Of a stretch of DNA of 53,859 nucleotides, positions 19,984-47,284 are shown in pieces (position 1 is the stretch's first letter; every line of letters begins with the position of its first letter). The notes under the pieces were generated by a model that searched no databases, had not been told where the DNA came from, and saw only the letters and a program-made list of their open reading frames with translations. Location: NCBI GenBank assembly GCA_038046605.1, contig JBBSVW010000023.1, positions 1 to 53,859 of the forward strand, read 5' to 3'. The translations under genes and the position numbers were made by a program. This DNA is from Candidatus Micrarchaeota archaeon (lineage in GTDB: Archaea > Micrarchaeota > Micrarchaeia > Norongarragalinales > SBBD01).

Positions 19984-20122
19984 CTAATGGAGCTAATTAA
20001 CCATCGAATCGAATGGCAGTGGTTCGATAGGCTAAGAAATACAACAAATATTGCTATTTTTTTCATACCACTAGGTTTTAATTTGGCAAATGAATCATTA
20101 TTTTACCCACAGTGCCCAAAAT

Positions 20123-24500: not shown

Positions 24501-26293
24501 GCATTGTTTCCGGAGTAGGTTGCCATCGCTCGTGCCTGTTTCGTTCCGACGGAGGTCGCGTTCCAGCTGAAATTGGCGCTGAAGTTACCTCCTGCAATCA
24601 CATCAGTGAGAACCGTATCCTGGCTGAAAATTACAGTGCCATTATCTATAACGGCGAAGGCGAGGATGGTTTGCAAGGTTGTGTTTCCTTGATTCTCAAA
24701 TAAAATGGTGGGATTCGCAACTTCCCCAAAGTCAATGGTTGCGGGAATATCGTATAGGGTTAATCGGCCGTCAGTGTTCGGCAACGGAAATACCTCGAAA
24801 TTAGAAATCAACTGATGCGTATTTCCCTGGAAATCTCGAACGTTCACAATAATGGCGTAATTACTAACGTCTAGTGTATTGCTGAAAACAGCCTTCCAAT
24901 GGGTAGAGTTCAGTTTGTTGAAGCTAATATTGACGGAATTGTTGGATGGGGTTAAGACGCTTCCGCTAAGAGTGATATTCTGATCGTTTGTGACCAGAAA
25001 AATATCGATAGGCGAATTTGCCGATATGGAGCGGGAATGTTCAAGCCGGTATTTCAAGATCAAATTTACGTTTTCAGGAAGAAGCTTGCTACAGTCAACT
25101 AAGCCAGAGCCGAATTGTACATCCTTGCCGGCAGAGCCCAGATCTATTGCGGTTGTTTCAAGTAGGTATTTTACTTCCGGGGGAGTAAGGCGGGGATTTT
25201 GTTGCAGCAGTAACGCAGCCAACCCGGAAACATGGGGCGCTGCCATGCTAGTACCGCTGTCGGTCCCAAATAAGCCTCCCGGAAGAGAGGAATTAATGAA
25301 TACTCCCGGCGCAACGACATCAGGTTTCATGTAGGTGCCCAAGGCTGCACCTGATGAAAAACACGCCCATTGATTGTATTTGTCAACAGCCCCCACGGAT
25401 ATTGCATCAGGAGAGTTGCCGGGCGTGCCAATTCCCACATACCCGTTGCAGCTTATGGATGGGCAACCAACGCCGCAATTTCCAGCGGAAACAACTACGG
25501 TTGCACCCGAAGAAACCGCATCACTGACAGCTGATAATATGGGGGAAACCAAGTTATTGTACGCCCCTCCCAAGCTCATGGAAATTATATCTGCACCATC
25601 ACCGGTTGAAACGTTATTGTCTGGATTTAATGCCCAATTGATCCCTGCAATGATGTCAGCCTCGTAACCGTTTCCGGCATTGTCCAGCACCTTGCCATTG
25701 AGAATGGATGCACCAGGCGCTACCCCCCTAAGTACGCCGTTCCCGGCCGCGATACCCGCCACATGAGTGCCATGACCGTTCCCATCCTGCCAACTTGCCT
25801 CCCCTGTAAAAACTTTGTTGGCGACAATTCGCCCTGCAAACATGGGATGGCTGGTATCGATTCCCGTATCAAGTATGGCCACCCTCACCCCTGTTCCGTC
25901 ATAACCAGCAGACCATAGATCATCCGCATTTATTTGAAGGGCGCTTCCCGACAACTGAATATGAAATATCCGGTTTGGGGATACCGACTTGACATAATTT
26001 AATTTTGCTATTTCCGGAAGCTTGCCTGCGGGAATTTCGGCATAAATGATATCACCAATTTTGAATTCGGACTTGACTTTACCCCCATTTGAAATAATGG
26101 AATCCTTCATTAATTGCATCGATGCTTCGCTTGATGCTGAAAATAATACCGGCACAGTTTGGGCTGGTTTCGACTTTGATAATTCCTTAAGTTCTCCTTG
26201 GATTTTCGTATAGGTGACGCTTTCCGCCTGCTGACCTGAGGCATGGATTGCACTAATCAGGAAAAGTAAAATGACAGCCAGCATGAATCTCAT
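21590..26293 (-). CDS. secreted S8 subtilisin-like serine protease with long C-terminal extension (CARDB-like, two flavodoxin/GATase-like repeats, dockerin pair, cohesin-like module, PT-rich tail)
   Basis: Signal MRFMLAVILLFLISAIHASG and an I9-like propeptide. Catalytic motifs are AILDTGID (Asp), HGTHVAG (His) and GTSMAAPHVSG (Ser). Dockerin repeats are DINSDGLRDIFDVVLLINYVF and DLDANGVHDIFDVVHLINHVF. The C-terminus is SSPTPVPTPTPMPSPTSNPSPTPAASPTPVPS. Confidence 0.9.
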   Translation of the reverse strand: MRFMLAVILLFLISAIHASGQQAESVTYTKIQGELKELSKSKPAQTVPVLFSASSEASMQLMKDSIISNGGKVKSEFKIGDIIYAEIPAGKLPEIAKLNYVKSVSPNRIFHIQLSGSALQINADDLWSAGYDGTGVRVAILDTGIDTSHPMFAGRIVANKVFTGEASWQDGNGHGTHVAGIAAGNGVLRGVAPGASILNGKVLDNAGNGYEADIIAGINWALNPDNNVSTGDGADIISMSLGGAYNNLVSPILSAVSDAVSSGATVVVSAGNCGVGCPSISCNGYVGIGTPGNSPDAISVGAVDKYNQWACFSSGAALGTYMKPDVVAPGVFINSSLPGGLFGTDSGTSMAAPHVSGLAALLLQQNPRLTPPEVKYLLETTAIDLGSAGKDVQFGSGLVDCSKLLPENVNLILKYRLEHSRSISANSPIDIFLVTNDQNITLSGSVLTPSNNSVNISFNKLNSTHWKAVFSNTLDVSNYAIIVNVRDFQGNTHQLISNFEVFPLPNTDGRLTLYDIPATIDFGEVANPTILFENQGNTTLQTILAFAVIDNGTVIFSQDTVLTDVIAGGNFSANFSWNATSVGTKQARAMATYSGNNAEVIMNMIVLDTAPPAIIDDSSSAAIPLNAPFETKLELFDLSSVNAVAHIYSPNQQNFSYPLLERRKIGNLRTFSGAFTGTSVTGTYFYYYELCDQEGNCVTSPEKTFKVNSCSPKNALLVYEDELSDKSPYLAALDNMCLALWNERWGGAPDANYMKRFKAVFWDAGRLFNRNVNDEGAVAIADYLSSGGGVLLVGEDVAFRHRADSLMASLGASYSNELNLGVANTAPIYKIHNHRLLSSLANGSQVNGTISPYPDSLEAMAGTPVAVWADQSAAIVVNESIGKSAIFPFSLNALGKPVAQSIVLDAYGWLSSTRQNSPDFAVIGVALPYLVEGNNKLEFLVGNLGLLVASGTYAAKLFVDGIEKASGNVPVLSRNSTINFTISLTPGKHLLELRLAEGSFIKESHYLNNFWSSEVQVASIQPELGIGAVSVEVDRELAIISANISNAGGTDAQAILKAYLDGALVDEMDLLVRKGKEETAVFNFQASSAGTHHLILEVSTSSPELDYSNNQYETELFTCDKFGVLIVEDDDTEGALTDSPSSFSALKEAAEYGGHCVKRWREAQNGLPDLQAANAYPVLIWSGGDYFSTLISEEDANFLRQYSGNVIYEGADFGYDHKGEAVMGELLISALHEDFHAAESEFILLQPHNITYGVPDITINGSLSPFPDSLLPIGSSISIGNWQGRQSAILASLQGTKAMAYFGFSVDSITDKSARNLLVANAIDWLGSFSIKPPECGDINSDGLRDIFDVVLLINYVFRNGAPPQPLWIGDLDANGVHDIFDVVHLINHVFRGAPEPGCVTSAPSSSTFAASLGTPYSADGITYIPVETEFASNAGALQLDIAYDVSAEYLGAVSQAAAANIDSYERVQGKNLTLGYVDSETPLPFGRNTIALLKFRSLPVGLKFVEAKGADLEGRRMGWIPLSSPTPVPTPTPMPSPTSNPSPTPAASPTPVPSAKPTEKIIPALE

Positions 26294-26364
26294 AATTATC
26301 CCGTCGTCAGGAACGACCACCAAGGCTTTTCAATAACCTAGTTCAATGCCTTTATTCTCATGAT

Positions 26365-28410
26365 TTAACCAACTTTCCATGCCCTCATCTCTTCCACGAG
26401 CCACTTTCTTAATTTTTCTAACTTTTCGGGGAGGGGCCTTTGAGGCATGACTCCCGCACTAAACCTAACGATCACTTTAACCTCTGGATTTTCATCCCTT
26501 GCTGCTCCGATCTCCCTGCTCAAGACTTTTTGCAAAGCTGCAGCGTCATATTCGTGCCCGTTTAATTCAGTCTTATCTTCGCCCCAATAATAATTAATGT
26601 AAAAATGCTTCCAACCAATATATTTTTCCAATTTTGGATACACTTTGCTTTCTTCCTCCCAATTTGCGGAAAATAGCATTGGCAACTTGGAAGGAACTAA
26701 TAAGATCCCGTTTTCCAGCTGCTCAACCCTGAAAGCAGGTGCGGAGAGGAGCTTTTCCTTGCCTATTTTCTCAACTATCGATGAGGAATAGAAGTTGAGC
26801 CAGAAGAACAGTTTATGAACATTCGGCGGTGCCTCCCCCTTCGAGAGGTTTTTATAAAGTTCGTCCCAATCATCGATTGACCCTATTTCGAACCGTGTTT
26901 GGTCGCCTGTTCCATAAAATCCTGCTTTTCCCAAAGATCTCCAAATCGCCTTTGCTAATTCAATTAATCTCTCGCTTCTTATCTCATACTCATGAAGTTT
27001 TGTTTCCCGTTCCTTCTCGTCCCCGATATACTTCAAATTATATACATCATATAAGGGGAAGTTGTAAACCGCTAACGAGACTTGAATTATGGGTGCGAGG
27101 GGCGAATTATTTATAGATAAGTGTAGAAGAGACGGAGGGGAGCTTTCAGGATCAGGTGAGTCTAAAAACCAAACTCCGGTTTTTCCTGTGGATAATTCCC
27201 TGATGGCTTGCCCTAATGTCAACTCCGAAACATCCTCATAGCCCCTTAAGTGATAGCTAGGCATCGGGCTTTGATTAGCATCGGATAAACCCGTACTTAC
27301 TCTTTTCGCTATTTCGACTGAAGATATCCTATTTGAAGGGCAATAAAAGTGAAGTTGCAAATCATCGTAAAATTCGGCATTCCTTTGAACCCTCCATGCC
27401 CCCATCTCATCGAGCAGCCACCTTCTTAATTTCTCGAATTTTTCTGGCAACGGCCTTTCTTTGGCGTACCAATAGTTAAGTCTCACAAATATCCTCAATT
27501 CTGGATTTTTCATTCTCGCTTCGCCGATCTCTACCTTGAGAATATCTTGCAACGCAGCGACAGTGTAAGCCCTATCCCGCCATTCCGCTTTGTCCTCTCT
27601 ATTACCTATTTCTATGAAAATATGCATCCATCCGAAAAATTTATATGCCTCTTCATATTGCGTATAAAAATTAGGAGGTGAAGCTGGGTCGCAGCTATGA
27701 GGCAATTTTGACAGCATTAGCACAAACCCATTTTCAAGCTGTTCCGCTCTATTCGCGGGTGCGGAGAAGAGCTTTTCCTTGCCTATTTTCTCAACTAGCG
27801 ATGGGGAATAGAAGTTGAGCCAATAGATTTTAGGGCTTGCATCCGGAGTGACCCTTTCCTTTGAAAGATTGCGTTCGAAAAATATGTTATCTGGAAAATC
27901 TAGTCGCAAAGCCCAATAATAGTCAACTTTTCCATAAAGAGCGTTTTTTCCTAAAGAATTCCAAATGGCCTTAGCTAATTCAAGGACTCTTTCACCTCTC
28001 GATTCATATTCTCCAAGTTTTTTATCAAATTCCTTTGGGTCTTTAACGCCCCTAAGACTGAGGGCATCAAGGGCAGATTTGTGGAAAGATAAGTGGACAT
28101 CATAAATTCCCTCATAATTCCATAGGGTGATGCCGAGACTCATTTCGGTTCCAAACCTTATGGCCGAATCCTCACGGTCAACAAATCCTACAGACTCCCC
28201 AATCGTGATGCTCCCATTTCTTTCTTCATGGGATAGCGTTTTAATCGCTTTAGCGACCGTCATTTTTGGAAGGCCTTTAAACTCTTCGGTAATGTTGCTG
28301 AACTCAAAACCATTTTCAAGCAAAGCCGATACTACTCTTTCAGCTAATTTTTTTATATCAATATTCTTAGAAGATGAATAAAAATGCAGCCATATGTCAG
28401 TCTCGCTCAT
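26365..28410 (-). CDS. cytoplasmic protein, internal tandem duplication 2 x (A+B); the A modules are homologous to the 233-aa protein at 29294..29995 (candidate immunity/partner fusion)
   Basis: No signal peptide. Residues about 1-250 and 345-590 align with each other and with the 233-aa protein (MSETDIWLHFYSS / LQLHFYCPS / MSDNDIVIHVFVG; YWLNFYSPSLVEKIGKEKLFSAP / FWLNFYSSSIVEKIGKEKLLSAP / YWLEIYSNELLGKVKF; QLENGFVLMLSKLP / QLENGILLVPSKLP / KLENGVFLLASPLP). The B modules are also duplicated (RPLPEKFEKLRRWLLDEMGAWRV / RPLPEKLEKLRKWLVEEMRAWKV). The start overlaps the upstream stop (ATGA). Confidence 0.85.
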   Translation of the reverse strand: MSETDIWLHFYSSSKNIDIKKLAERVVSALLENGFEFSNITEEFKGLPKMTVAKAIKTLSHEERNGSITIGESVGFVDREDSAIRFGTEMSLGITLWNYEGIYDVHLSFHKSALDALSLRGVKDPKEFDKKLGEYESRGERVLELAKAIWNSLGKNALYGKVDYYWALRLDFPDNIFFERNLSKERVTPDASPKIYWLNFYSPSLVEKIGKEKLFSAPANRAEQLENGFVLMLSKLPHSCDPASPPNFYTQYEEAYKFFGWMHIFIEIGNREDKAEWRDRAYTVAALQDILKVEIGEARMKNPELRIFVRLNYWYAKERPLPEKFEKLRRWLLDEMGAWRVQRNAEFYDDLQLHFYCPSNRISSVEIAKRVSTGLSDANQSPMPSYHLRGYEDVSELTLGQAIRELSTGKTGVWFLDSPDPESSPPSLLHLSINNSPLAPIIQVSLAVYNFPLYDVYNLKYIGDEKERETKLHEYEIRSERLIELAKAIWRSLGKAGFYGTGDQTRFEIGSIDDWDELYKNLSKGEAPPNVHKLFFWLNFYSSSIVEKIGKEKLLSAPAFRVEQLENGILLVPSKLPMLFSANWEEESKVYPKLEKYIGWKHFYINYYWGEDKTELNGHEYDAAALQKVLSREIGAARDENPEVKVIVRFSAGVMPQRPLPEKLEKLRKWLVEEMRAWKVG
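26738..26802 (-). repeat. near-identical 65-nt patch, copy 1 of 2 (partner at 27758..27822)
   Basis: GGTGCGGAGAGGAGCTTTTCCTTGCCTATTTTCTCAACTATCGATGAGGAATAGAAGTTGAGCCA differs at 3 positions from the copy exactly 1020 nt upstream. The flanking codons of the two halves are far more diverged. Confidence 0.85.
27758..27822 (-). repeat. near-identical 65-nt patch, copy 2 of 2
   Basis: See 26738..26802. The offset of 1020 nt equals 340 codons, so the patch is in frame. Confidence 0.85.
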
Positions 28411-29288
28411 TGGAGCACCTCAATACCCGCAATTATCCCACGCATTTCTTCATCAAAAAACCGCACAACATCATCATCCGGCATTTGCTCTAAAACAAAT
28501 GTAAGTCCGCCCCTTCCTTCCAACTCTTTACCCCTTACAAGTTTGTTTATTTTATCCCGAAGATATTCGATGTCCGGCGCCTCAAGGTATACGGATTTCA
28601 CTTCATCATCGCCGTTAGTCCCGGTTTCCGCTGCTTCGGAAGGCAGGATTATTTTCTTCCAACCGTTTCCGACAGAAGCCAACAATTCGGCCCCATCTGT
28701 CCGCACATTCGCGTTTGTCCGCGCCCGCATACCGCCGTATTCGATTTCGATGCCATCGGCGGCCTTCTCAATTTTGACCTTCAAGACGGGTTCACTTGTA
28801 ACCCGCGGCTTGTATTCTGAAGGCGATAGCGGTTCTTCGGACGCACTTGGCCTGGGCAACTGGGCAATTATCTGCAGAGTTGAACCGGGCAATTGCTTAA
28901 CCTTGGAAGAAGACCGGCCATTGCCCGAATCTTGAACGGTTATGGATGCTCCCGAGCGGTCAGTTGAAGTAATGCTAATTGTTGTTGGGTCGGGGGATGT
29001 TCGATAGGCTTGCCCTTCAATAACCTGCACAACCACGGTAATGAAATTACCTCCCATTGAAAGATTATAGGTGCCGTTTTCGGAATTGGATGGTGTGGGT
29101 TGGACGCTAATCCGAATTATAGGTATCAATGAAGGGGCAGGAGACGCACATGGCTCATCGTAAGTGCCATAAGGATCGTTCAACGCGCGGTAAATGCGCT
29201 CGGTGGGGCAAGGAGCGTTGGGCGGGCCTATTTCCGCAGCTACGGCAACAAGAAGTGCAGTAATTGCGATCAATAAACTAATTTTCAT
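28407..29288 (-). CDS. secreted chimeric protein: N-terminal about 220 aa like the 326-aa protein (33772..34752), C-terminal about 65 aa like the end of the 1258-aa protein
   Basis: Signal MKISLLIAITALLVAVAAE. LPGSTLQIIAQLPRPSASEEP aligns with VPGSEVRLIARLPTPTISPEP, and KKIILPSEA with RKLILPSLA. The tail LRDKINKLVRGKELEGRGGLTFVLEQMPDDDVV...IIAGIEVLQ aligns with ILDKITKLTNAVRMEGRGGIRFVFENTPFSDVI...DIIGWEVLT. A TTG at 29297 is an alternative start. Confidence 0.85.
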   Translation of the reverse strand: MKISLLIAITALLVAVAAEIGPPNAPCPTERIYRALNDPYGTYDEPCASPAPSLIPIIRISVQPTPSNSENGTYNLSMGGNFITVVVQVIEGQAYRTSPDPTTISITSTDRSGASITVQDSGNGRSSSKVKQLPGSTLQIIAQLPRPSASEEPLSPSEYKPRVTSEPVLKVKIEKAADGIEIEYGGMRARTNANVRTDGAELLASVGNGWKKIILPSEAAETGTNGDDEVKSVYLEAPDIEYLRDKINKLVRGKELEGRGGLTFVLEQMPDDDVVRFFDEEMRGIIAGIEVLQ

Positions 29289-29293
29289 ATTTT

Positions 29294-29995
29294 TCAATCA
29301 CCCAAATTGATGCCTTTAGGCTGGCAGGTATATGGCAACGGGGAAGCCAAGAGGAACACGCCGTTTTCAAGCTTTTCACTTTTCCTTGAATTAACGAACT
29401 TAACCTTCCCCAATAGTTCATTCGAATAAATCTCCAGCCAATATTTTTTATCCCCTCCAAATGTTTCAAGAGTCTGGAGGAAATTCTGCAACGGCTCGAA
29501 GTTAGCCTCCTTCAAATAAAGAACGTCGTCCCCAACCGCAAAAACTGCTAAGTCGCCCAACGAATCCATAATGGATTTAGTGGTGTTAAGCAATAGTCTT
29601 GCCCTTCCATAAAACTCCTTAAGTACAGGTCCAGCTACCTTCGGGTCTTCGTTATCCAGAACCTGCATCCGGGCGTTGAGTGGACTTTTTGGAACCGAAT
29701 AATGAACATTATAATATTTGCCGTTATGATCATAAATAAATAGGAACAATACCGCATAATCCGTACTCAACATCACGTGCTTGCCAACCACAAAGGTTCC
29801 ATGCCGCTCTCCGGAGCATAATCTTTTTACAGCCTCATCTATAGTCATGTCGGATTTACCGTCTTTTTTTTCTATTACATTATAAAAATGAAGCCCGCTC
29901 TTCAGCATGGCAGTAAGCACCCTTTTTGCTATTTCTTCCTTTTTCAATTTATTTTTGCCAACAAATACGTGTATTACGATGTCGTTATCGCTCAT
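29294..29995 (-). CDS. cytoplasmic 233-aa protein, single A module (candidate immunity/partner of the upstream C-terminal module)
   Basis: No signal peptide. Its ATG overlaps the TGA of the 1258-aa gene (TCAT on the plus strand at 29992..29995). It is homologous to both A modules of 26365..28410. Confidence 0.85.
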   Translation of the reverse strand: MSDNDIVIHVFVGKNKLKKEEIAKRVLTAMLKSGLHFYNVIEKKDGKSDMTIDEAVKRLCSGERHGTFVVGKHVMLSTDYAVLFLFIYDHNGKYYNVHYSVPKSPLNARMQVLDNEDPKVAGPVLKEFYGRARLLLNTTKSIMDSLGDLAVFAVGDDVLYLKEANFEPLQNFLQTLETFGGDKKYWLEIYSNELLGKVKFVNSRKSEKLENGVFLLASPLPYTCQPKGINLGD

Positions 29996-32900
29996 GTCAA
30001 CACCTCCCAGCCGATAATATCCCCTTTACTTACCGCATTATTCAAAACCGTAATTACATCACTGAACGGGGTATTTTCAAAAACAAAACGAATACCGCCC
30101 CTGCCTTCCATCCGAACTGCATTTGTCAACTTCGTGATTTTATCCAAAATAACATCTTTGGCGGGATTCCCAGACTTGAATTCTAAAATTGAATTATCAT
30201 TAAGAATTGCATCGAAGTCCGTAATATCCCTACCACCACTTCTTACTGCATGGCTTACTTCAACAACCTCATCTGCATGACTCGAGCGAGAAGCAGCTTT
30301 AATTTCGAAAAGATAACCCGTTAGTTCCCCGTCGGTAGACCTGATTATCTTTTCTTCGATCTTATCTATCCCCACAACTCCCCTGCTGCGCAATTTGTTC
30401 ATATTCTCGAAGGCTTCTTCAGCCCCTTCCTTCGCCACTCTGGCAATTTTTTTGCCTGCATCCTGCCTTATCGGAGAGCCCTGTACGAATTCGTCCAATC
30501 CTTTTATCGCGTCGTCGGACCAGCGAGTAGTATCTACGCCGATATCGACAGCCTTCCTAAAAATGCCGATGTCGTCGAACCACCTGGCAAGTTTCTGGAT
30601 GCCTTCCTTTCCATAAGAGAATAAATCGTCACCAATTTTTCCAATAGCCTTAGTTGCTTTTTCCAGTATTTCTACTTTTTTGATACCTTTGCCCACAGTA
30701 ATTCCGACTACGCCCACCAACCCGACGGGGATCAATGGCGAGGCAATGTCACCGATAAGGAATGCCTCTTCCACCCAGCATTTATTCGCAGTAACGCCCG
30801 CCTCCCGCCTTATGGTTGCGGTGCAAGTTTTAAAGTCCCCAGAGCAGCTCTCAATTGCTTTTATGCATCCAGAAAAGCCGCTCCCAAATGCACTCTGGTT
30901 TGAGTAAATTATGCAACTGCAGTACTCTTCGGTGCTTAATCCTATGGAAATAAGATCGACTACTTCCAACGCTATGACTCCCAGGGCAATAGCACTCGTA
31001 TTGACTGAACCGTTCGATGCACTCCCGATTCTATTGGATGGTGAAAACGTAGTTTGGAATGAAAGCGTTTGGACTGGCGATTGCAAATTAACGGACTGGG
31101 TCAACTGATAAAGCCCGGAATATGAAGGATTTGTAACGGCATATCGGACATCCACCCTATGGTTGCCGTAATCAATGTTTTCAATATATGCAAAGCCGAA
31201 CACATTCGTTAATGCCTTAGGATCGTCGTATTTCGAATCCAAAAATACGTATGCGTTTGCAACCGGGTACCCATTAGGGTTATCCGTATTTATTTTCAGG
31301 TTCCCCTTCTGGACGGGCTGGGTGCAGGCACAATCAAAATACGCCCATTCGCTTCCGTCCACGTACACATTCCGGATTCCGCAGTAGTTGCCATTGGGGC
31401 AATATACTGTAACGGAATGAGACCCGTATTTAGCGGACGAGGATAATGTGCCGTCGTCTCCGGTTACACCCACAGCATTGCCGTCAATACTGACCGAAGC
31501 GGATTTCACGGGGCCATATCCTGCATTAATATCGTCAACATCCACGGAAATTTGGCCGTATTGAGAAGCAGGGCAATAAGGCTGGTCGGGTATGCAGCCG
31601 TTTGTGCAAGTTTCCTTATAGCACATGCAAGTATTCTGGCTGGAATCAAAATAGCAGTTGTAATTCCTTCGATTACCGTCGCATGTGTTGTCGAACAAGG
31701 AGCAATCGGTTGATGATGTAAAGATAATGTCGCCGAAGTTCACATCGCCCATGAAGAAGAAGCAGCTGTTTCCCAAATTATCATATACCGTATACTTCGT
31801 GCCCCCGACGGTTACCTTTACTTTATAATTTCCGGAATTCCCGTTCAGGGCGAAGTAACCGTTAGCATCTGTAGATGTGCCGGATACGAACGAATCGGAA
31901 CAGGTTGCTAGCTCCATCGGTGCGCCTGCGATGGGCGTGCCATTCGGGTTCTTGACGTATCCGTGAACTGAAGTTTTCATCGGCAGCTTGATGGTGGACA
32001 ATTCCCACGCGCCGGCAGCATAGTATTTGCATGCCTGCCCCTCTACCGTAATATCAAAAGTCGCGAAATTTGTTACAATTTTGAGCTTGTAACTGCCAGG
32101 TTGCGCAACCAGCGTATATCTGCCCGAAGAATCCGTCGTGGAGGAAGTAACGAAATTGCCGCTGCAATCGGTGAACTGCGCCTGCAATCCCTGCTGGGGG
32201 GTGCCCTGCTCATCCTGAACAATTCCGGTGACGCTTGCCTGGGTTACGATGATAATTGGATTATTGAGTGCGTAATAACCCGGCACCCACCTATAGCAAC
32301 TGATGCCGTCAATCGGGACTTCAACCGTTGTGCCAGAATAGGTTGCCTTAAGCTTATAGGTTCCGTACGGGGCAACGAGAGTGAACGAGCCATCGCCCGC
32401 GGTTGTGGCACTGGCGACAGGGTTGTCCGAACAGTCCGTGAAGCGCACGGCCGCGCCCGAGAGTGGGGCGTTGGCGCTGTTTTTCACATAGCCCGTGAGG
32501 TGCACTTTTACAATAATTTGGATGTTGGGGAAGGTCCAGCCGCCGGGTGTGAACAGGAAGCACTCCGAAAGGGGGATCTGGCCCCAGCTCGTGTCCGCCC
32601 AAACTACGTACTGGCCCCACTTTTCCTGCGGGAAAACGAAATGGCCGCTTCCGTCGGTGAAAGCGGTTTGCTTCGGATTTCCAACGCAATCCTTCAGCCT
32701 CATCAGGTAGCCGGAAAGAGGCGCGCCGTTTTCGTCCCTCAAATAGCCGTCTATATCCACGCGGTCATTGACAGTCAGGTCGCCAAAATTTACGGTGTCG
32801 ACGAGCCTCAAACAGGTATTTCCCGAACCGTCGCCAATGTAAACCCATGCCGACCACGGCATCCAGAATTTAATCTTGTAATAGCCATTCACGTCATTGA

Positions 32901-33768
32901 TCCTGAAAATCCCGAAGGCATCTGTAGAAATCGGCTGCATGTTAATATCATTGCAATCGGTCAATTGGCCGGTCAGGTATGCGTACGGGACACCGAACTG
33001 GTTGGCTAATTTTCCGGTGGTGCTCATGAAGCCGCCAATTACTGAGAAATAATTCGTAAAGGCTGAAACGGTAGAGCCGGGAATAGACAGCTGGGTGAAC
33101 CAACGCATGTTCGGGCCCCAATAATTGGTGGGCCAGTTCAATTCTCCCAGCCATTGAGAGGCGAAGCCGTTTAAGGGCCAGGGGGGGAAGGTGGTTGGCG
33201 GACCCATAACGCCGTTTTCGTCGACGAAGCGAATCGTTTCCGTTGCCTGGACTGCGGGGCCGTTGTTTTCCACGAAGCGCCTTATAATTTGGGTCTCGGT
33301 TTTGTAGAAATAAAGGGTCTTGTCCGTTGAGGCAGTGTAGCGGCCTAGGCTTGTGGGCGATAAAACACCCTTCTGGGCGATATCCGCAATTTTTTGAACG
33401 CCACTCACTACGGTCAGGCTGGGCTTGTACGACGCCAATGCCGGCCAATCACCGCCGGTGGTTATCGTCGTGAAGTTCGCATTGCTGACGAGCGAATAAT
33501 TGTAGGGGTGGTTATATGTGACCGTGTAAACGCTTGAGGATTCCACGGCCTGCAATGCGCTGGAGGTCGCTGCAAATGAGCCCGCACTTTCGCTTATTTG
33601 GAGGCTGCTTATGCCAGAATAGCCCGTTGCAATAACTGCGTTCAATTCGGATTCGGGAATAATTGTTGGGGAAGGGTCGAGGGAAACTTTCGCGCCTAAA
33701 GCACCGGAGGTTAGCAGTGCGACTGCAAGAAGCAGTACTATCGCAAGCAAGGAAATTTTTCCATGCAT
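29992..33768 (-). CDS. giant secreted repeat protein with C-terminal Hjc/PD-(D/E)xK-like module (candidate polymorphic-toxin-like effector)
   Basis: Signal MHGKISLLAIVLLLAVALLTSGALG. It has at least 5 tandem carboxypeptidase-regulatory-like beta-sandwich repeats, each with a (T/K)DC motif (for example GYVKNSANAPLSGAAVRFTDCSDNPVASATTAGDGSFTLVAPYGTYKLKATY). A Cys-rich knot (CSLFDNTCDGNRRNYNCYFDSSQNTCMCYKETCTNGC) follows. Two hydrophobic segments lie at aa 924-944 and 1002-1026. The 232-aa tail ends ...HAVRSGGRDITDFDAILNDNSILEFKSG...MEGRGGIRFVFEN. Confidence 0.9.
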   Translation of the reverse strand: MHGKISLLAIVLLLAVALLTSGALGAKVSLDPSPTIIPESELNAVIATGYSGISSLQISESAGSFAATSSALQAVESSSVYTVTYNHPYNYSLVSNANFTTITTGGDWPALASYKPSLTVVSGVQKIADIAQKGVLSPTSLGRYTASTDKTLYFYKTETQIIRRFVENNGPAVQATETIRFVDENGVMGPPTTFPPWPLNGFASQWLGELNWPTNYWGPNMRWFTQLSIPGSTVSAFTNYFSVIGGFMSTTGKLANQFGVPYAYLTGQLTDCNDINMQPISTDAFGIFRINDVNGYYKIKFWMPWSAWVYIGDGSGNTCLRLVDTVNFGDLTVNDRVDIDGYLRDENGAPLSGYLMRLKDCVGNPKQTAFTDGSGHFVFPQEKWGQYVVWADTSWGQIPLSECFLFTPGGWTFPNIQIIVKVHLTGYVKNSANAPLSGAAVRFTDCSDNPVASATTAGDGSFTLVAPYGTYKLKATYSGTTVEVPIDGISCYRWVPGYYALNNPIIIVTQASVTGIVQDEQGTPQQGLQAQFTDCSGNFVTSSTTDSSGRYTLVAQPGSYKLKIVTNFATFDITVEGQACKYYAAGAWELSTIKLPMKTSVHGYVKNPNGTPIAGAPMELATCSDSFVSGTSTDANGYFALNGNSGNYKVKVTVGGTKYTVYDNLGNSCFFFMGDVNFGDIIFTSSTDCSLFDNTCDGNRRNYNCYFDSSQNTCMCYKETCTNGCIPDQPYCPASQYGQISVDVDDINAGYGPVKSASVSIDGNAVGVTGDDGTLSSSAKYGSHSVTVYCPNGNYCGIRNVYVDGSEWAYFDCACTQPVQKGNLKINTDNPNGYPVANAYVFLDSKYDDPKALTNVFGFAYIENIDYGNHRVDVRYAVTNPSYSGLYQLTQSVNLQSPVQTLSFQTTFSPSNRIGSASNGSVNTSAIALGVIALEVVDLISIGLSTEEYCSCIIYSNQSAFGSGFSGCIKAIESCSGDFKTCTATIRREAGVTANKCWVEEAFLIGDIASPLIPVGLVGVVGITVGKGIKKVEILEKATKAIGKIGDDLFSYGKEGIQKLARWFDDIGIFRKAVDIGVDTTRWSDDAIKGLDEFVQGSPIRQDAGKKIARVAKEGAEEAFENMNKLRSRGVVGIDKIEEKIIRSTDGELTGYLFEIKAASRSSHADEVVEVSHAVRSGGRDITDFDAILNDNSILEFKSGNPAKDVILDKITKLTNAVRMEGRGGIRFVFENTPFSDVITVLNNAVSKGDIIGWEVLT

Positions 33769-33771
33769 ACC

Positions 33772-34752
33772 CTATCCCATCGCCAGGAACGCCCACCATG
33801 GCTTTTCAATGCTTTCAACCCGCCTGGTTTCCGCATTCACAAAGGTTTTCAGAGGCATATTTACCTCCAGGAGCCCAAACAGCCTCGTTCGCCTTTCGGA
33901 TGATATTTGGTATATCGGCCTTCCTCCCTCAACCTCCAATTCAAATTTAGTTATCGCGCCTAGCTGGGCCTTGATCGGGGCAAGGGCCAATGATGGCAAG
34001 ATCAACTTCCTCTTCTCGCTTCCGGCTTCCACCTTCAAGTCCCCATTTACCAAGAAGAGCTCCCGGGTAGTTTCTGCCACAATACCCCCCTCTTCAATTA
34101 GGGTTACATCCCCTATTTTTGAAAGCTTCACTTTCCCGCCCTCATTATTTATCTCAGCATTTCCCTCAGAAACTTCTTGTGGGGAAATTGGTTCTGCTGT
34201 TGGCTGGATGGGCTCGATTTCGTCCGCAGGAGGTAGGGGAGGCGATTCAGGCGACTGTGGGGTCGGCTCCGGTGAAATTGTGGGGGTGGGAAGGCGGGCG
34301 ATGAGCCGGACTTCCGAACCCGGCACTACCTGCACGTTTGGCATGTATGGCGGAGATGCCTGAATTGTGGAGATGGTTACTGTGTCGGTGTAGCTTCTGA
34401 CCGGTTTGTTTAGTGAATAGTTTCTGGTTTCGTAAGAGACGTTCGCGCCAATTTGCGAGGGCGTAGAAGATGCAAACATTATAGGAGGAATTACGTTTGG
34501 CGATCCATTGGAGAGGTTAACATTAATCATCAACGGGAAGGGCGCTACCGGCATGCTCGTAGGAAAACCAATTGATGGGGAGGCGCTTGGGCAGGGAGTG
34601 CGGTTGTACGGATAAATCAGAATGCTATAAGGAGCGCACGGCGTTGGCGTAACGTTTTCCGCAATTGCATTAGGCATAAGGGAAACGATAACGGCGAAAA
34701 ACATGCCTGCTGGCAGTATGAGAAGAAGCTTCCGGTTCAATTCCACCCCCAT
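33772..34752 (-). CDS. secreted protein, first gene of the operon (Pro-rich linker; C-terminal KPWWAFL module)
   Basis: Signal/anchor LLLILPAGMFFAVIVSLMPNAIA and the linker ARLPTPTISPEPTPQSPESPPLPPADEIEP. The C-terminus is FELEVEGGRPIYQISSERRTRLFGLLEVNMPLKTFVNAETRRVESIEKPWWAFL (PepSY-like pattern from memory, unverified). Its stop is 3 nt before the next start. Confidence 0.85.
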   Translation of the reverse strand: MGVELNRKLLLILPAGMFFAVIVSLMPNAIAENVTPTPCAPYSILIYPYNRTPCPSASPSIGFPTSMPVAPFPLMINVNLSNGSPNVIPPIMFASSTPSQIGANVSYETRNYSLNKPVRSYTDTVTISTIQASPPYMPNVQVVPGSEVRLIARLPTPTISPEPTPQSPESPPLPPADEIEPIQPTAEPISPQEVSEGNAEINNEGGKVKLSKIGDVTLIEEGGIVAETTRELFLVNGDLKVEAGSEKRKLILPSLALAPIKAQLGAITKFELEVEGGRPIYQISSERRTRLFGLLEVNMPLKTFVNAETRRVESIEKPWWAFLAMG

Positions 34753-34876: not shown

Positions 34877-36046
34877 CTAATATAGCAATCCAAACAGGAA
34901 TAGCGGCATGAACTTGCCCTCAAATTTGACTCCGTCAACAGCGATAAGGTCGGCCATAGCATAGGATTTTTTGCTGACGCCCCCTACTTCCACCACTTTC
35001 CCCTCTTTTAGGAAATCCGGGGTCTTCTCCCCGCGTTTGGTCTTAAAGTAGCAATCGGGATCCGCATTATTGACGAAGAATTCCTCCCTCAAGGCGCCTT
35101 TGTCGGGGTTTGGGCACAGCAAAAAACGGTAAGGCGGGGATAGGAATACCTTGGGCTCTTTTTTCACGTTCGCTAGCCCGTGCTGGCAGGGAAGCAAAGT
35201 TTTGATGATTCCCGCATCCTCAAGATTTGAAATCAGGGTTATGAGGAATGTTTTGCCTATTCCAAGTTTTTGCGATACTGAATTGTAGCTGAATTCATAA
35301 GGCGGCGAACTCGCAACATGGTAAAGCAGCTTATAGGCGTCGTTTTCATATTTCGAATTGATCCCGCGCATTGAAATAAGGTCCTTGGTAAGCATCTTAT
35401 CCAGCGTATTGCCAAGTGCTTCCCTGAAACCGCTTCCTCCGAATAGGACGCCCCCGTTTAGCATATAATCTTCCAAATAGCGGGAGGCTTCGGCGTGCCT
35501 TATGCTCAAATCCTTCCTGCTTTCCATTATGGTTTTGAAATCGTAAGGGGGTATGTCGTACCCTTTCTTTATGTTCAAGTATTCCCTATAGGAGGCGGGC
35601 TTGAGCTCGAGAATAACCGCCCTGCGGGAGAGATCGGCCCCGCGCCCCCGGATCTTAAGGCCCGAAGAGCCCGAAAAGAATACCCTTGCCCTTTTCTCAT
35701 CGTAGATTGCTTTCAGGTCCCCCGCCCATTCGTAGGAGGTATGGATTTCATCAATGAAAATATTCTGGAAACCCTGCCGTTGCAGATGCTCTGCAATCTC
35801 ATATATTGAGTATTTTCTCAAGAAGATTGCATCCGCGGAGAAATATATTGAATTTTCGAAGCGACCTGCAATCTGGAGCAATAAAATCGTCTTCCCAATG
35901 CCCCTTAGCCCCACAATTCCGACAAAATAATCATCGGTTATGCCCATCGCTTTCTCAAACAAATGCCGTTTCTTTGTGAAAGAATTGCCCCATTTTTTCA
36001 AGGATTCACTGTTCCTTAGCAATTTTTCAAAATCCTGGTTTTCCAT
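34877..36046 (-). CDS. AAA+ ATPase (AAA_14/COG1373-like)
   Basis: Walker A GLRGIGKTILLLQ and Walker B NIFIDEIH followed by W..DLK and FFSGSS, as in the archaeal predicted ATPase family. Confidence 0.7.
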   Translation of the reverse strand: MENQDFEKLLRNSESLKKWGNSFTKKRHLFEKAMGITDDYFVGIVGLRGIGKTILLLQIAGRFENSIYFSADAIFLRKYSIYEIAEHLQRQGFQNIFIDEIHTSYEWAGDLKAIYDEKRARVFFSGSSGLKIRGRGADLSRRAVILELKPASYREYLNIKKGYDIPPYDFKTIMESRKDLSIRHAEASRYLEDYMLNGGVLFGGSGFREALGNTLDKMLTKDLISMRGINSKYENDAYKLLYHVASSPPYEFSYNSVSQKLGIGKTFLITLISNLEDAGIIKTLLPCQHGLANVKKEPKVFLSPPYRFLLCPNPDKGALREEFFVNNADPDCYFKTKRGEKTPDFLKEGKVVEVGGVSKKSYAMADLIAVDGVKFEGKFMPLFLFGLLY

Positions 36047-36550: not shown

Positions 36551-37903
36551 TCAAGGCAGGCCGTGGATGAATTTGAGCGATTCCTCCGGGTCCAGCAAAA
36601 ACAGGGGCAAAGGCACCTTGTTTTTTCCAATGCTGTCTTTTGTGATGTAAATAACCCCTTCCCGCTCCTTGCCTATAATCCCGTACTTGCTTTCCAGCGA
36701 ATAGGTCTTTTCCCCAATCCTTGCAATGAAATCTATTTCCCCCCCACTTGGGCTTTTCTCGAAATGCACAAACCGCCTAACATCAAAATCATTGCTTCCA
36801 CCCCTTAAGTCAAGATATTGGGATAGGTTGGAAAATATCGACAGTTCTGCAAGCTTGCCCATAGTTTCGGAGGTGAGGTCGGCTACTTGGGCGGAATTCA
36901 GTTTTCTTCCCCGGAATAGCGAAAGCCAATAAAGGAATGGATCGGAAAAATACACCTTCTTGTTCCTCGGATTACCGAAAAGCGCCCGTTTTGCCTTTTC
37001 CAGGTAGCCGATTACGAACATATCTTTTAGGGTTTCACCATAGTTAGCAACGGTTGGATGGGAGGCGTGCTTGGATAGGGCGCTCCACGAGATGTCGTTT
37101 GTTAGGCTGTTTGCAATCCCATCCATGAGATAGGTCGCAAGTTCGGGCGATTTCCTTGCCTTCGATAGCTCGCCATCGATCCATGCAGAATAGACCGAAA
37201 AGAGGTCCTCATCCAGCCTCTTGTTCATTTCAAGCGCGTTTATGGCCCGTATAAACCCCCCGTGAATGAAATATTTGTAAAGAACGGAATTGAGCTCGCG
37301 AAGATTTGCCAGAGCTTCCCTTGGGGATTTTACCCTAATGCCAAATAGTTCCGCAACCTCACGAAAGCTTAAGGGATAGAAACGGTATTTGTTCCTTCCT
37401 TCCGAAAGCCTTCCCGGAAGCCGTTCAGCCTTCTTTAACAGGTTTATTGACGAGGAGCCTGTCAGTATAGCCTGCTTCCCGTCAAAAAACCCCCCATCCA
37501 CCAACGCCTTTATGGATACCTCCCAGTCGGAAATGGCCGTGATTTCATCAATGTAGCAAAATTCGAGCTTGTTTATCGAATCCGCCGTTTTCAAAAAATC
37601 AATTAGCTCGAAACGGTCCCGTACTGTTTCGGCGTTAAGGTACAAAATGCCTTCAGGTTCCTGCTTTTTCAGCTTCTCTATAATCTGAAGCTTGATCCAG
37701 GTGGTTTTGCCAACCTGCCTTGGGCCGTAGAGTATGCTGACCCCCTCCTTGTCGGGAATTATTTTAGGCCTCGAATATACCAGGGGGTATTTTTTCAATT
37801 GCCTTAAATGGCGATCCTCCTCGTGCCACCTTTTGCCCCTCCACCAGGGGTTCTGGGAAATTATGGTTTCAATTTCCATACTGAAACTATTGGAAAGGGG
37901 CAT
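36551..37903 (-). CDS. AAA+ ATPase, COG1373 type (AAA_14 + DUF4143-like)
   Basis: Starts with NPWWRGKRW, then has Walker A GPRQVGKTTW, Walker B CYIDEITAISDWE and ILTGSSS. Confidence 0.8.
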   Translation of the reverse strand: MPLSNSFSMEIETIISQNPWWRGKRWHEEDRHLRQLKKYPLVYSRPKIIPDKEGVSILYGPRQVGKTTWIKLQIIEKLKKQEPEGILYLNAETVRDRFELIDFLKTADSINKLEFCYIDEITAISDWEVSIKALVDGGFFDGKQAILTGSSSINLLKKAERLPGRLSEGRNKYRFYPLSFREVAELFGIRVKSPREALANLRELNSVLYKYFIHGGFIRAINALEMNKRLDEDLFSVYSAWIDGELSKARKSPELATYLMDGIANSLTNDISWSALSKHASHPTVANYGETLKDMFVIGYLEKAKRALFGNPRNKKVYFSDPFLYWLSLFRGRKLNSAQVADLTSETMGKLAELSIFSNLSQYLDLRGGSNDFDVRRFVHFEKSPSGGEIDFIARIGEKTYSLESKYGIIGKEREGVIYITKDSIGKNKVPLPLFLLDPEESLKFIHGLP

Positions 37904-43055: not shown

Positions 43056-43201
43056 AGCCCCCGGCGAGAGTCGCACTCGCGGCCTTTTCCTTTTCGATAC
43101 CTTGTCACTTTTTTCTTTGGCGCGGAGCCACCGCACCTTTCTTTTCTAAAGAAAGGGGCAAGGCATACCAAGGAAACGCTCTACTGCTGAGCTACGGAGG
43201 C
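43056..43201 (-). tRNA. tRNA-Thr (anticodon GGU) with a roughly 74-nt intron after position 37
   Basis: The reverse complement reads GCCTCCG TA GCTC AGCAGTA GAGC G TTTCC TTGGTA [intron] A GGAAA AGGCC GCGAG TGCGACT CTCGC CGGGGGC T. All four stems pair (one G-U in the acceptor). The T-loop has G at the normally invariant position 55. Confidence 0.7.
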
Positions 43202-46172: not shown

Positions 46173-46610
46173 GCCGTTCAGCCAATAACTCTATCAGCTC
46201 GTATTTAATAATAACTTCTTCCGCAAGAACCATCCGAACCCCTCCCGCGGAAGCAAAGCCCCAAATCCTCCGCTCCTTCACCCTAGCCCTTCAGCTCTCT
46301 GCCAAACCCTGGATAATTGGTGGAAAATATTCCCAAAATTTTGCCGTTAATTTTAAGGGGTGAAGTTTTACGCCTGTTCAACCCCTTAAATTTTCTAGCG
46401 CAATAGCGGTTTTTGTATTCTGAAACGAGTTCTCGATTTCTCCGCCTGGTTTGCTCCATATAATATATCTATATTATACGACTATCTCGCCTTGCCTCAA
46501 ATAGGCCGATTTTTCTATTATCCTCTTTATTGATGCCAACAAATAGGCTTATATTGTGCAATTTGTTCTACTATTTAGTAGTTTAAACACCGCAATAGGC
46601 AGTGGTATTT

Positions 46611-47282: not shown

Positions 47283-47284
47283 TA

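Follow-up and report, generated by a model that had tools for sequence, protein, structure and literature searches.

A putative restriction-endonuclease-fold toxin family carried by a new, proposed polymorphic-toxin scaffold of archaea

Does a giant archaeal surface protein end in a nuclease, and, if it does, could this nuclease be a toxin with its own immunity protein? In bacteria, polymorphic toxin systems are familiar, but for archaea they are described as scarce (PMC3482391). The predicted archaeal systems were experimentally uncharacterised as of 2021 (PMC8416519), and the tested archaeal toxin-immunity pairs that we found are T6SS-linked and come from one haloarchaeon (PMC11566945). Here, we explored this question in a locus within a window of 53,859 nucleotides, by which we mean the whole stretch of DNA that was analysed. 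The gene concerned and its N-terminal segment are as follows.

29992..33768, minus strand: giant gene of 1258 aa, the putative toxin (ORF list)
33688..33768, minus strand: Sec-type signal peptide or anchor, aa 1-27, MHGKISLLAIVLLLAVALLTSGALGAK (predicted from sequence)

The encoded protein is composed, in order, of the signal peptide, a beta-sandwich stalk, a pre-toxin module, a helical linker and a nuclease domain with a restriction-endonuclease (REase) fold. The N-terminal 27 residues have a Kyte-Doolittle mean of 2.55 and a crude Hessa sum of -2.3 kcal/mol. The stalk (aa 337-816) matches the Pfam families CarboxypepD_reg (four times), DUF1416, SdrD_B, Big_1 and others. The protein also contains many Cys-rich extracellular stretches besides the six-cysteine loop of the pre-toxin module. 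Homologues have an architecture identical in type. The family is rare, with 8 other cluster representatives among 1.84 billion; its hosts so far are almost only methane-oxidising (ANME) archaea (ANME-1, ANME-2 and related MAGs), and each genome has several paralogous loci.

The initial annotation had read a nuclease signature in positions 29995..30690, which are exactly aa 1027-1258 of the giant ORF. All the strings that it quoted were found where it had placed them, within aa 1151-1232: GYLFE at 1151-1155, VRSGG at 1175, D1184-F-D1186, E1196-F-K1198 and GRGGIRF at 1222. We counted their conservation in a 16-row homologue alignment comprising 15 distinct sequences, which are 20-54% identical to that of the window.

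30304..30306, minus strand: E1155 on helix alpha1 (G-x-x-x-E), kept in 15/16 rows
30211..30219, minus strand: D1184-F-D1186 on strand beta2 (alignment)
30175..30183, minus strand: E1196-F-K1198 on strand beta3, the (D/E)-x-K motif (AF2 model and alignment)

D1186 and K1198 were present in all 16 rows, as was D1166, and position 1196 is E in 15 rows and D in one. Because these residues are kept across homologues of 20-54% identity, the motif is not a chance pattern. D1184/D1186 and E1196-x-K1198 had been put forward as the catalytic residues, and this proposal holds for D1186, E1196 and K1198, each kept in 15 or 16 of the 16 rows. However, D1184 is not the key aspartate but only a mostly acidic position (D/E in 14/16 rows, Q in 2/16).

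The fold was then modelled with AF2 from aa 1122-1258 and an 8-sequence alignment, which gave a pLDDT of 93.4 and a pTM of 0.86. The model has the canonical alpha-beta-beta-beta-alpha-beta core, in the order helix(E1155)-beta1-beta2(D1186)-beta3(E1196-x-K1198)-helix-beta4-helix-beta5 (elements H25-38, E47-56, E59-68, E73-77, H83-100, E105-109, H115-127 and E132-135). A second model (aa 897-1258) reached a pLDDT of 67-90 past about residue 181, with five helices before the core, and the linker from about aa 1077 was modelled confidently together with the nuclease core. The structured unit would thus extend over about aa 1077-1258, with the predicted catalytic core inside it.

30334..30681, minus strand: helical linker, aa 1030-1145, with a W-S-D-D-A-x-x-G-L motif (AF2 model)
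29995..30333, minus strand: predicted PD-(D/E)xK (restriction-endonuclease-fold) core, aa 1146-1258 (AF2 model and Foldseek against PDB and BFVD)

Restriction-endonuclease-fold proteins made up about 30 of the 50 best Foldseek matches in PDB and many of the matches in BFVD, with TM-scores of 0.55-0.59 among the best. The best PDB matches, mostly of this fold, were VC1899 (1xmx), Can2 (8bao; TM 0.56, probability 0.96), Hef, MUS81, FANCM/FAAP24, EcoT38I, Avs4 and the RPB5 N-domain, at weak E-values of 0.025 or worse. In BFVD, the best match was an uncharacterised giant-virus protein (E = 3.4e-4), and those annotated as 'PD-(D/E)XK nuclease' or 'Restriction endonuclease' had E = 3e-3 to 5e-3 and probabilities of 0.99-1.0 (one PD-(D/E)XK nuclease, E = 3.1e-3, probability 1.0). 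The closest structural neighbours, Can2 and the Card1-like VC1899 as well as Hef/XPF/MUS81 (1j22, 9f9l), share the core with the model at a query-normalised TM-score of up to 0.56, whereas sequence identity is 12-22% and the Foldseek E-values are 0.04-0.1. Their context is wholly unlike that of the window domain: Can2 and VC1899 are CARF-fused defence effectors and Hef/XPF/MUS81 are DNA-repair enzymes, while here the domain is the C-terminus of a secreted protein. At the sequence level, no known nuclease or toxin family was matched in Pfam, NCBIfam, PADLOC, PHROGs or PDB sequences, and searching PDB sequences with the family profile (hmmsearch) returned nothing. The model and the REase-dominated match lists nevertheless bear out the fold that had been claimed, and they support the prediction that this archaeal surface protein, which is secreted, ends in a PD-(D/E)xK (restriction-endonuclease-type) nuclease domain of ~180 residues.

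The domain had also been called Hjc-like, which we retain only as a description of its motifs. With Hjc/Hje (1gef, 2wcw, 1ob8, 1hh1) it shares the succession of helix-E, V-R-x-x-G, beta2 D, beta3 E-x-K, helix and G-G plus strand in roughly the same spacing, and hhalign places D1186 on Hjc D33 and E1196-x-K1198 on E46-x-K48. However, a specific kinship is unsupported: the family profile scored a probability of 0.2% (E = 0.28) against a 4-sequence Hjc/Hje profile, Pfam Hjc was not matched by the window (E up to 1) or by 8 members (E up to 10), and no Hjc/Hje chain was among the top 50 of either Foldseek PDB search. The window domain differs further in its longer beta1-beta2 hairpin and extra N-terminal helical subdomain, and Hjc is a small free-standing cytoplasmic dimer, whereas this domain ends a 1258-aa secreted protein.

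To what extent does this C-terminus vary among relatives? In the ANME-1 and ANME-2 MAGs, the paralogues are 85-100% identical in the pre-toxin module and then switch abruptly to unrelated C-termini. Windowed identity between the paralogues of one ANME-1 MAG fell abruptly from 85-100% to below 40%, about 100-140 aa past an S-T-x-E-F-C-x-C motif. In the window, the approximate junction is as follows.

30571..30582, minus strand: W-F-D-D, aa 1063-1066, approximate recombination junction, beyond which paralogues diverge

Three proteins, L014 (666 aa), L015 (984 aa) and L017 (1179 aa), have the same pre-toxin module with different C-termini of the H-x(4-5)-H type, and to date the C-termini fall into no more than two superfamilies. 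Mild mosaicism shows in the window protein too: for the stalk, the closest sequence is P0004 (42% vs 37%), and for the nuclease it is L006 (54% vs 34%). A large secreted protein with a conserved pre-toxin part and a recombination-variable C-terminus, as in polymorphic toxins, is found here.

The genes around the giant ORF were investigated next to this variation, and all are on the same strand.

33772..34752, minus strand: secreted protein of 326 aa, upstream (BLASTP)
29294..29995, minus strand: candidate cognate immunity gene, 233 aa, without a signal peptide (ORF list and imm330 comparison)
28407..29297, minus strand: degenerate toxin remnant, 296 aa (giant-protein similarity and family HMM)
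26365..28410, minus strand: double immunity-type protein of 681 aa, with two imm330 units in tandem (sequence comparison)
21590..26323, minus strand: giant secreted subtilase, Peptidase_S8 and CARDB (Pfam)

The start of the 233-aa ORF overlaps the stop of the toxin gene (ATGA), so that the two are translationally coupled. Downstream of the nuclease-type toxins stands a single family of small cytoplasmic proteins, imm330, to which the 233-aa and 681-aa ORFs belong; the former is a short member that lacks the C-terminal ~100 aa of the family. An imm330 ORF lies directly downstream of a nuclease-type toxin in nine non-redundant loci (L001-3 taken as one, L004, L005, L007, L008, L009, L012, L013 and L016), and L018 and L021 have one just upstream of additional toxin genes. 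After the L014 and L015 toxins there is no imm330 but unrelated ORFs of 192 aa and 181 aa. The downstream gene thus co-varies with the C-terminal type, with the exception of L006, the closest homologue, in which a different ORF of 388 aa follows. Outside these loci, the imm330 family was found nowhere among 5.8 billion proteins.

Three parts make up the remnant, which is followed by the 681-aa double immunity-type protein: a signal peptide, a stretch resembling the secreted ORF upstream and the final ~64 aa of the REase domain. It is 41% identical to the C-terminus of the giant protein over 56 aa, and positions 80-150 of the family HMM match its aa 232-295. An analogous remnant is present in L009 (2426..2911), and short toxin-immunity pairs stand in tandem in L012, L013, L016, L018 and L021; remnant or standalone cassettes, as known from polymorphic toxin systems, are found in both the window and related loci. 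The subtilase lies downstream in L001-3, L005, L006, L015 and L022, irrespective of toxin type, and is a candidate processing or release protease. The 326-aa protein has no Pfam match, and its C-terminal domain recurs in ORFs of L001-3, L006, L015, L019, L020 and L022 (BLASTP). The displacement of C-termini in paralogues and the co-varying downstream genes favour the earlier suggestion of a polymorphic toxin warhead, and the comparison supports the view that the nuclease domain behaves like a swappable warhead with its own immunity gene adjoining.

PD-(D/E)xK-fold toxins are known among the CdiA-CT proteins of E. coli EC869 and Burkholderia 1026b. As a class of polymorphic-toxin warheads, REase-fold domains are well established under the names Tox-REase-1 to -10 (Zhang et al. 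2012, PMC3482391). As in those systems, in the window a large secreted multi-domain protein has the REase-fold domain at its very C-terminus, the candidate immunity gene is directly downstream, and recombinational C-terminal replacement and remnant cassettes are present. The E ... D ... E-x-K signature is also shared, and the G-x-x-x-E / x-D / E-x-K of the window resembles the motif list of Tox-REase-7 (PMC3482391). However, neither the window domain nor 7 homologues matched any Tox-REase Pfam model at E up to 10. Tox-REase systems are bacterial and use T5SS, T6SS, T7SS or Rhs, whereas this family is archaeal (ANME-1, ANME-2 and relatives) and built on a Sec signal peptide and a CarboxypepD_reg-type stalk. 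Its pre-toxin module and immunity family are new, and the giant subtilase takes the place of the HINT, PrsW or caspase-type releasing peptidases.

Among archaea, the predicted polymorphic toxins (Makarova et al. 2019, cited in PMC8416519) and the haloarchaeal T6SS pairs (PMC11566945) can be compared, as far as these two accounts describe them. The likeness lies in a gene array headed by a long protein, downstream genes homologous to its C-terminal region, and immunity genes. The accounts state that DNase and RNase domains are the commonest toxin moieties, and they report Ig-like domains in some effectors. Our family differs from the systems as described there in its ANME MAG lineage and its pre-toxin module, and the window ORFs that were scanned yielded no genes of a contractile injection system or a T6SS. 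The VARTIG arrays of Thermococcales (PMC8416519) are similar in that they are archaeal, begin with a large Ig-like-domain surface protein, and have a hypervariable recombination-made C-terminus and variable downstream genes. However, VARTIG has no recognisable toxin domain, which is the main caveat of its authors, whereas here the C-terminus has a predicted nuclease fold with conserved catalytic residues.

Based on these comparisons, the C-terminal domain is probably an active, metal-dependent PD-(D/E)xK nuclease and, within a polymorphic toxin of archaea, the exchangeable toxin domain. The 1258-aa protein would be exported and displayed on the cell, and its C-terminal fragment would be released, possibly by the subtilase, and enter a neighbouring cell. 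The glycine/proline-rich hydrophobic pre-toxin module may be the membrane-crossing device. Inside the neighbour, the nuclease would cleave nucleic acid by means of E1155, D1186, E1196 and K1198, and carriers of the cognate immunity protein would be protected. An archaeal pathway that would export or translocate such a toxin is not known to us, and this counts against the reading, as do the lack of sequence matches to known nuclease or toxin families, the weak PDB E-values, the different ORF after L006, the shortened 233-aa partner, the low model confidence of the pre-toxin module and the small number of C-terminal superfamilies.

In the pre-toxin module, two moderately hydrophobic segments stand on either side of a six-cysteine loop.

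30931..30999, minus strand: hydrophobic segment 1, aa 924-946, with E933 and conserved D936 (Kyte-Doolittle and alignment A7)
30778..30921, minus strand: six-Cys loop, aa 950-997 (C950, C952, C968, C975, C982, C997; alignments)
30682..30765, minus strand: hydrophobic segment 2, aa 1002-1029, marginal transmembrane candidate (hydropathy and alignments)

Segment 1 has a conserved A-V-I-D-x-A-S motif whose D is invariant in the pre-toxin alignment A7. The six cysteines are invariant in A7 and nearly so in A6. In segment 2, the conserved motif is L-x-G-D-x-x-S-P-x-I-P-x-G, with L, D, P and G invariant. The 19-residue Kyte-Doolittle means of the window reach 2.24 in segment 1 and 1.98 in segment 2, and the pLDDT of the module is below 56 (AF2, aa 897-1258). 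The pre-toxin module, the nuclease domain and the immunity family were all absent from the libraries searched.

We think it rather unlikely that the protein acts as an outside-in sensor, that is, as a type I membrane protein whose beta-sandwich ectodomain senses a virus or a neighbour and whose segment 2 spans the membrane. The nuclease would then be in the producer cytoplasm, kept inactive by the 233-aa partner until it acts as a suicide or defence effector, and the domain swapping would resemble the effector modularity of defence systems. The basic GKGIKK after segment 2 of the window, together with the hydropathy of that segment, is consistent with the positive-inside rule and would agree with a tail in the cytoplasm of the producer. 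A signal peptide is absent from the partner, the six-cysteine loop would be on the ectodomain side like the other Cys-rich extracellular stretches, and the defence-effector nucleases Can2, Card1-like VC1899 and Avs4 are among the best structural neighbours. However, segment 2 varies from 1.25 to 1.98 on the Kyte-Doolittle scale across the family and is marginal in most homologues (1.25-1.73), with crude Hessa insertion sums of +6 to +11 kcal/mol. Because it combines this marginal hydropathy with an invariant D and P, a G, a second P and usually a His, it resembles a conserved motif more than a general-purpose membrane anchor, and these family-wide sequence data weaken the option of a stop-transfer anchor. 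Moreover, tandem toxin-partner cassettes and degenerate remnants are typical of a polymorphic toxin locus, and the conserved secreted subtilase suits extracellular processing.

It is very unlikely that the protein is no toxin but a surface-displayed nuclease degrading environmental DNA for nutrient scavenging or matrix remodelling. The signal peptide, the long adhesin-like stalk and the conserved nuclease active site would suit this role. However, it leaves unexplained the tight coupling of the cytoplasmic partner gene and its co-variation with the C-terminal type, the abrupt C-terminal replacement between near-identical paralogues, and the remnant cassettes. Least credible of all is an inert REase-fold binding module like the RPB5 N-domain and FAAP24 of the Foldseek lists, against which the four canonical catalytic positions kept in 15-16 of 16 divergent homologues argue, or a genuine Hjc-type resolvase fused to a surface protein, which agrees in the D and E-x-K register but fails in the profile, Pfam and structural comparisons above and would biologically be senseless as a recombination enzyme on a secreted protein.

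The preferred reading is that of an exchangeable toxin domain, and since its catalytic residues and partner gene are defined, the locus is directly testable in heterologous hosts. If confirmed, it would add a new toxin/immunity pair of the REase fold and a candidate module for toxin translocation in archaea. A more far-reaching proposal, which we regard as doubtful, is that the pre-toxin module and the conserved giant subtilase constitute a novel archaeal single-membrane protein delivery and the first contact-dependent inhibition in ANME archaea, or else a transmembrane sensor with a swappable cytoplasmic nuclease effector, which may be freed from its inhibitor upon contact with a virus or a foreign cell. 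If true, either version would mean that archaea deploy toxins or effectors by a new principle, and this in uncultured organisms with a consortium biology that is not understood. The toxin itself, if confirmed, would offer a molecular handle on competition or kin discrimination among methane-oxidising archaea, organisms that do not grow in pure culture.

The putative giant toxin is encoded by 29992..33768 (- strand) and has 1258 aa, and the tail singled out by the initial annotation (29995..30690) corresponds exactly to aa 1027-1258. All of the motif strings quoted for this tail were recovered, namely GYLFE ending at E1155, VRSGG from residue 1175, D1184-F-D1186, E1196-F-K1198 and GRGGIRF from residue 1222, and the two hydrophobic stretches reported ahead of it were found at aa 924-946 and 1002-1029. 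Residues 1-27 are strongly hydrophobic and look like a signal peptide. Pfam matches were limited to the middle of the protein (about aa 337-816), which contains four CarboxypepD_reg-type beta-sandwich repeats and matches related Ig-like models; in the tail, Pfam recognised nothing.

We searched for relatives of the C-terminal 232 aa in several collections. Scans of this region and of the partner ORFs against Pfam, NCBIfam, PADLOC and PHROGs gave no meaningful match, nothing relevant was found among PDB sequences by phmmer or profile hmmsearch, and a word-indexed protein search with the 232-aa tail returned no match. When 1.84 billion cluster representatives were searched exhaustively with phmmer, just eight other proteins came up. 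In six of these the match covers the nuclease-like end, and they are either full-length with the same architecture or pieces of such proteins; P0004 is a family member too, though its listed best stretch fell in the linker, and the match of P0009 was confined to a repeat within the linker. Scanning GTDB species representatives and JGI metagenome contigs with a 3-sequence alignment added 17 loci. In GTDB, four of the family loci lie in a Methanophagales (ANME-1) MAG, two in a Candidatus Methanogaster (ANME-2) MAG and three in a 'Methanobacteriota archaeon' MAG, and the family also occurs in one unclassified archaeon. Word-indexed searches in which the pre-toxin module and the immunity family served as profiles returned only a few fragments, from loci of the same kind. 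Three database proteins (P0002, P0012 and P0013; 275-286 aa) have as their first residue the Met of the conserved motif A-M-L-V-G-D-x-A-S-P; they are orphan toxin cassettes whose start coincides with the recombination homology, or else artefacts of gene calling on short contigs.

Conservation of the C-terminal domain was counted over 16 aligned rows, which comprise 15 distinct sequences with 20-54% identity to the window. D1166, D1186 and K1198 are invariant, position 1196 is E in 15 rows and D in one, E1155 is kept in 15 of 16, and position 1184 is acidic in 14 and Q in two. These counts define the motif as a conserved signature, G-x-x-x-E ... [DE]-x-D ... E-x-K. Of the catalytic residues proposed initially, D1186, E1196 and K1198 are conserved; D1186, not D1184, is the key beta2 Asp.

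AlphaFold2 modelled aa 1122-1258 from an 8-sequence alignment with a mean pLDDT of 93.4 and a pTM of 0.86. The elements follow in the order E1155 helix, beta1/beta2 hairpin (long, D1186 being on its second strand), beta3 with E1196-x-K1198, helix, beta4, helix and beta5; this predicted topology is the classic PD-(D/E)xK one. A Foldseek search of PDB gave nothing at E ≤ 1e-3, and restriction-endonuclease-fold proteins made up about 30 of the best 50 matches. Among them were VC1899 (1xmx), Can2 (8bao; TM-score 0.56, probability 0.96), Hef, MUS81-EME1, FANCM-FAAP24, EcoT38I, EcoO109I, Nt.BspD6I and Avs4, as well as the RPB5 N-domain, which SCOP assigns to this fold too. Matches in BFVD were stronger than those in PDB; the best was an uncharacterised giant-virus protein (E = 3.4e-4), and proteins annotated 'PD-(D/E)XK nuclease' or 'Restriction endonuclease' followed at E = 3e-3 to 5e-3 with probabilities of 0.99-1.0. 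When the modelled stretch was extended to aa 897-1258, only the part beyond about aa 1077 came out with confidence (pLDDT about 67-90); it has five helices packed ahead of the nuclease core, and this model again retrieved restriction-endonuclease-fold proteins. The earlier proposal of a PD-(D/E)xK fold is therefore borne out by predicted topology and structural neighbours, and we consider the assignment sound at the superfamily level.

The same proposal had likened the domain to the Holliday-junction resolvase Hjc. We aligned a 14-sequence family profile with an Hjc/Hje profile (1gef, 2wcw, 1ob8 and Sulfolobus Hjc; the Pyrococcus Hjc sequence is identical to 1gef) using hhalign. The register coincides, with D1186 on D33 and E1196-x-K1198 on E46-x-K48, but the probability was 0.2% (E = 0.28), and no Hjc chain was among the best 50 Foldseek matches of either model. 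A specific homology to Hjc was therefore rejected as unsupported. What the two share is the superfamily's generic signature in a matching register, which is not evidence for Hjc membership.

Several relatives carry the pre-toxin module with different C-termini, each with an H-x(4-5)-H motif:

L014, 7236..9236, 666 aa: alternative C-terminus with K-K-H-I-Q-F-K-H
L015, 6258..9212, 984 aa: alternative C-terminus with W-T-H-I-K-K-K-H
L017, 92..3628, 1179 aa: alternative C-terminus with W-E-H-I-V-G-E-G-H-H

These C-termini may represent an RNase-type toxin family; their sole Pfam match was Ntox5 at an unusable E = 0.13. Between paralogues within one ANME-1 MAG, and with a metagenome copy, windowed identity was 85-100% across the stalk end and pre-toxin module and then dropped abruptly to below 40%, and L014 and L015 share at least 90% identity through a common linker, their divergence being confined to the last ~150 aa. 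Such a pattern marks replacement of the C-terminus through recombination. The window protein is itself mildly mosaic, since its stalk is nearest to P0004 (42% versus 37% for L006) and its nuclease domain is nearest to L006 (54% versus 34%).

The genes beside the toxin gene in the window are as follows:

21590..26323, - strand: secreted subtilase (Peptidase_S8 + CARDB), 1577 aa
26365..28410, - strand: 681-aa protein of two tandem immunity-type units, ~340 aa each
28407..29297, - strand: apparent degenerate toxin remnant, 296 aa, between both immunity-type genes
29294..29995, - strand: 233-aa ORF, candidate immunity gene
33772..34752: secreted 326-aa ORF, upstream of the toxin gene

The 233-aa ORF starts inside the toxin stop codon (ACATGA), has no signal peptide and is homologous to either half of the 681-aa ORF. 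Homologues of about 300-330 aa lie directly 3' of nuclease-type toxins in L001-3, L004, L005, L007, L008, L009, L012, L013 and L016, and in L018 and L021 immunity-family ORFs are found just 5' of a further toxin gene. The family is absent after the L014 and L015 toxins, which are followed by unrelated ORFs of 192 aa and 181 aa, respectively, and was not found outside such loci in a collection of 5.8 billion proteins. Because it tracks the nuclease toxin type and is found nowhere else, it behaves as expected of a cognate immunity protein. L006, the closest homologue, has a different, 388-aa ORF downstream of its toxin. The initial suggestion of a polymorphic-toxin warhead is strengthened by C-terminal replacement among near-identical paralogues and by a downstream gene that co-varies with toxin type. 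We also compared the C-terminal beta-alpha-beta of the immunity protein with the toxin beta4-alpha-beta5, which it resembles by eye, and rejected homology at an hhalign probability of 1.3%.

The window's 233-aa copy lacks the C-terminal ~100 residues that all other family members have; the insertion event behind the downstream remnant may have cut it short. Judged from its composition, this 296-aa remnant is chimeric: a signal peptide and a segment similar to the secreted 326-aa ORF are joined to the last ~64 residues of a nuclease domain, a piece that includes E-V-K. Its listed TTG start is probably wrong, and an ATG at 29288 gives MKISLL... L009 holds a comparable remnant with an internal deletion, and short toxin-immunity pairs occur in tandem in L012, L013, L016, L018 and L021. 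Because the 681-aa double copy comes after the remnant, the locus has three immunity-type units per one intact toxin.

Synteny of the subtilase with the toxin gene extends to at least six other loci (among L001-3, L005, L006, L015 and L022), regardless of toxin type, and small secreted proteins like the 326-aa ORF are conserved in the same way. Two dockerin-like repeats (DINSDG..., DLDANG...) can be made out by eye in the subtilase, as can a tail rich in Pro and Thr. Three adjoining ORFs, 16011..18959 (-; 982 aa), 19087..19959 (+; 290 aa) and 20090..21547 (+; 485 aa), have no Pfam match at all.

Elsewhere, the window carries archaeal features: genes for FKBP26, PAC2, a UbiA-family prenyltransferase and a dCTP deaminase-like protein, and an intron-containing tRNA. 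This 146-nt tRNA (43056..43201, -) is found by Rfam and missed by ARAGORN, presumably due to the intron, and fits an archaeal genome. Two AAA_14 ATPases are encoded immediately upstream of the toxin locus, at 34877..36046 and 36551..37903 (-), the second also with DUF4143. An AbiEii-type nucleotidyltransferase toxin lies at 47285..48253 (+), within 46602..48253, and the 226-aa ORF preceding it probably encodes the AbiEi partner. Over 32001..34000, the 5' third of the toxin gene, GC content reaches 52.8%, versus 42-46% for its 3' part and the downstream genes; amino-acid composition or mosaic origin may explain this.

The pre-toxin module is common to all members and lies directly upstream of aa 1027-1258. 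Hydrophobic segment 1 (A-V-I-D-x-A-S, with a conserved Asp) is followed by a loop with six invariant cysteines, similar to numerous other Cys-rich extracellular stretches in these proteins, then by hydrophobic segment 2 with L-x-G-D-x-x-S-P-x-I-P-x-G, and finally by a helical stretch ending near K-W-F-D-D. The main rival explanation is a transmembrane sensor whose cytoplasmic nuclease effector is restrained by a partner protein. In the window, segment 2 has moderate hydrophobicity (Kyte-Doolittle 1.98) and GKGIKK comes right after it, which, taken alone, suggests a cytoplasmic tail and fits this rival. Across the family, segment 2 reaches just 1.25-1.73, keeps one D and one P in every member along with G, another P and, in most cases, His, and gives crude summed Hessa energies of +6 to +11 kcal/mol versus -2.3 for the signal peptide; in the aa 897-1258 model, pLDDT was below 56 over the hydrophobic segments. 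We infer that both segments form a conserved functional module, which may be membrane-active in delivery rather than a simple stop-transfer anchor, and we regard the sensor as unlikely. A surface nuclease scavenging eDNA and an inert or Hjc-type module are minor rivals that fit the comparative data poorly.

The kind of system is known, because domains with a restriction-endonuclease fold form a recognised class of polymorphic-toxin warhead (Tox-REase-1 to -10; PMC3482391), archaeal nuclease-tipped polymorphic toxins have already been predicted (Makarova et al. 2019, as cited in PMC8416519), and toxin-immunity pairs of a haloarchaeal T6SS have been tested (PMC11566945). The literature searched yielded nothing relevant on ANME with polymorphic toxins or immunity proteins. 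The nuclease family is new in having no profile or PDB sequence match, though it may already be listed in the 2019 survey; the immunity family, the pre-toxin module, the association with a giant subtilase and the host lineage (ANME and relatives) are new as well. A nuclease-type active site is conserved on a confidently predicted restriction-endonuclease fold. As a polymorphic toxin, the giant protein would be exported by Sec and displayed on its stalk, and its C-terminal part would be released by proteolysis, perhaps via the subtilase. The hydrophobic pre-toxin module would help entry into a neighbouring cell, where E1155, D1186, E1196 and K1198 would cleave nucleic acid, and the immunity protein would protect kin.
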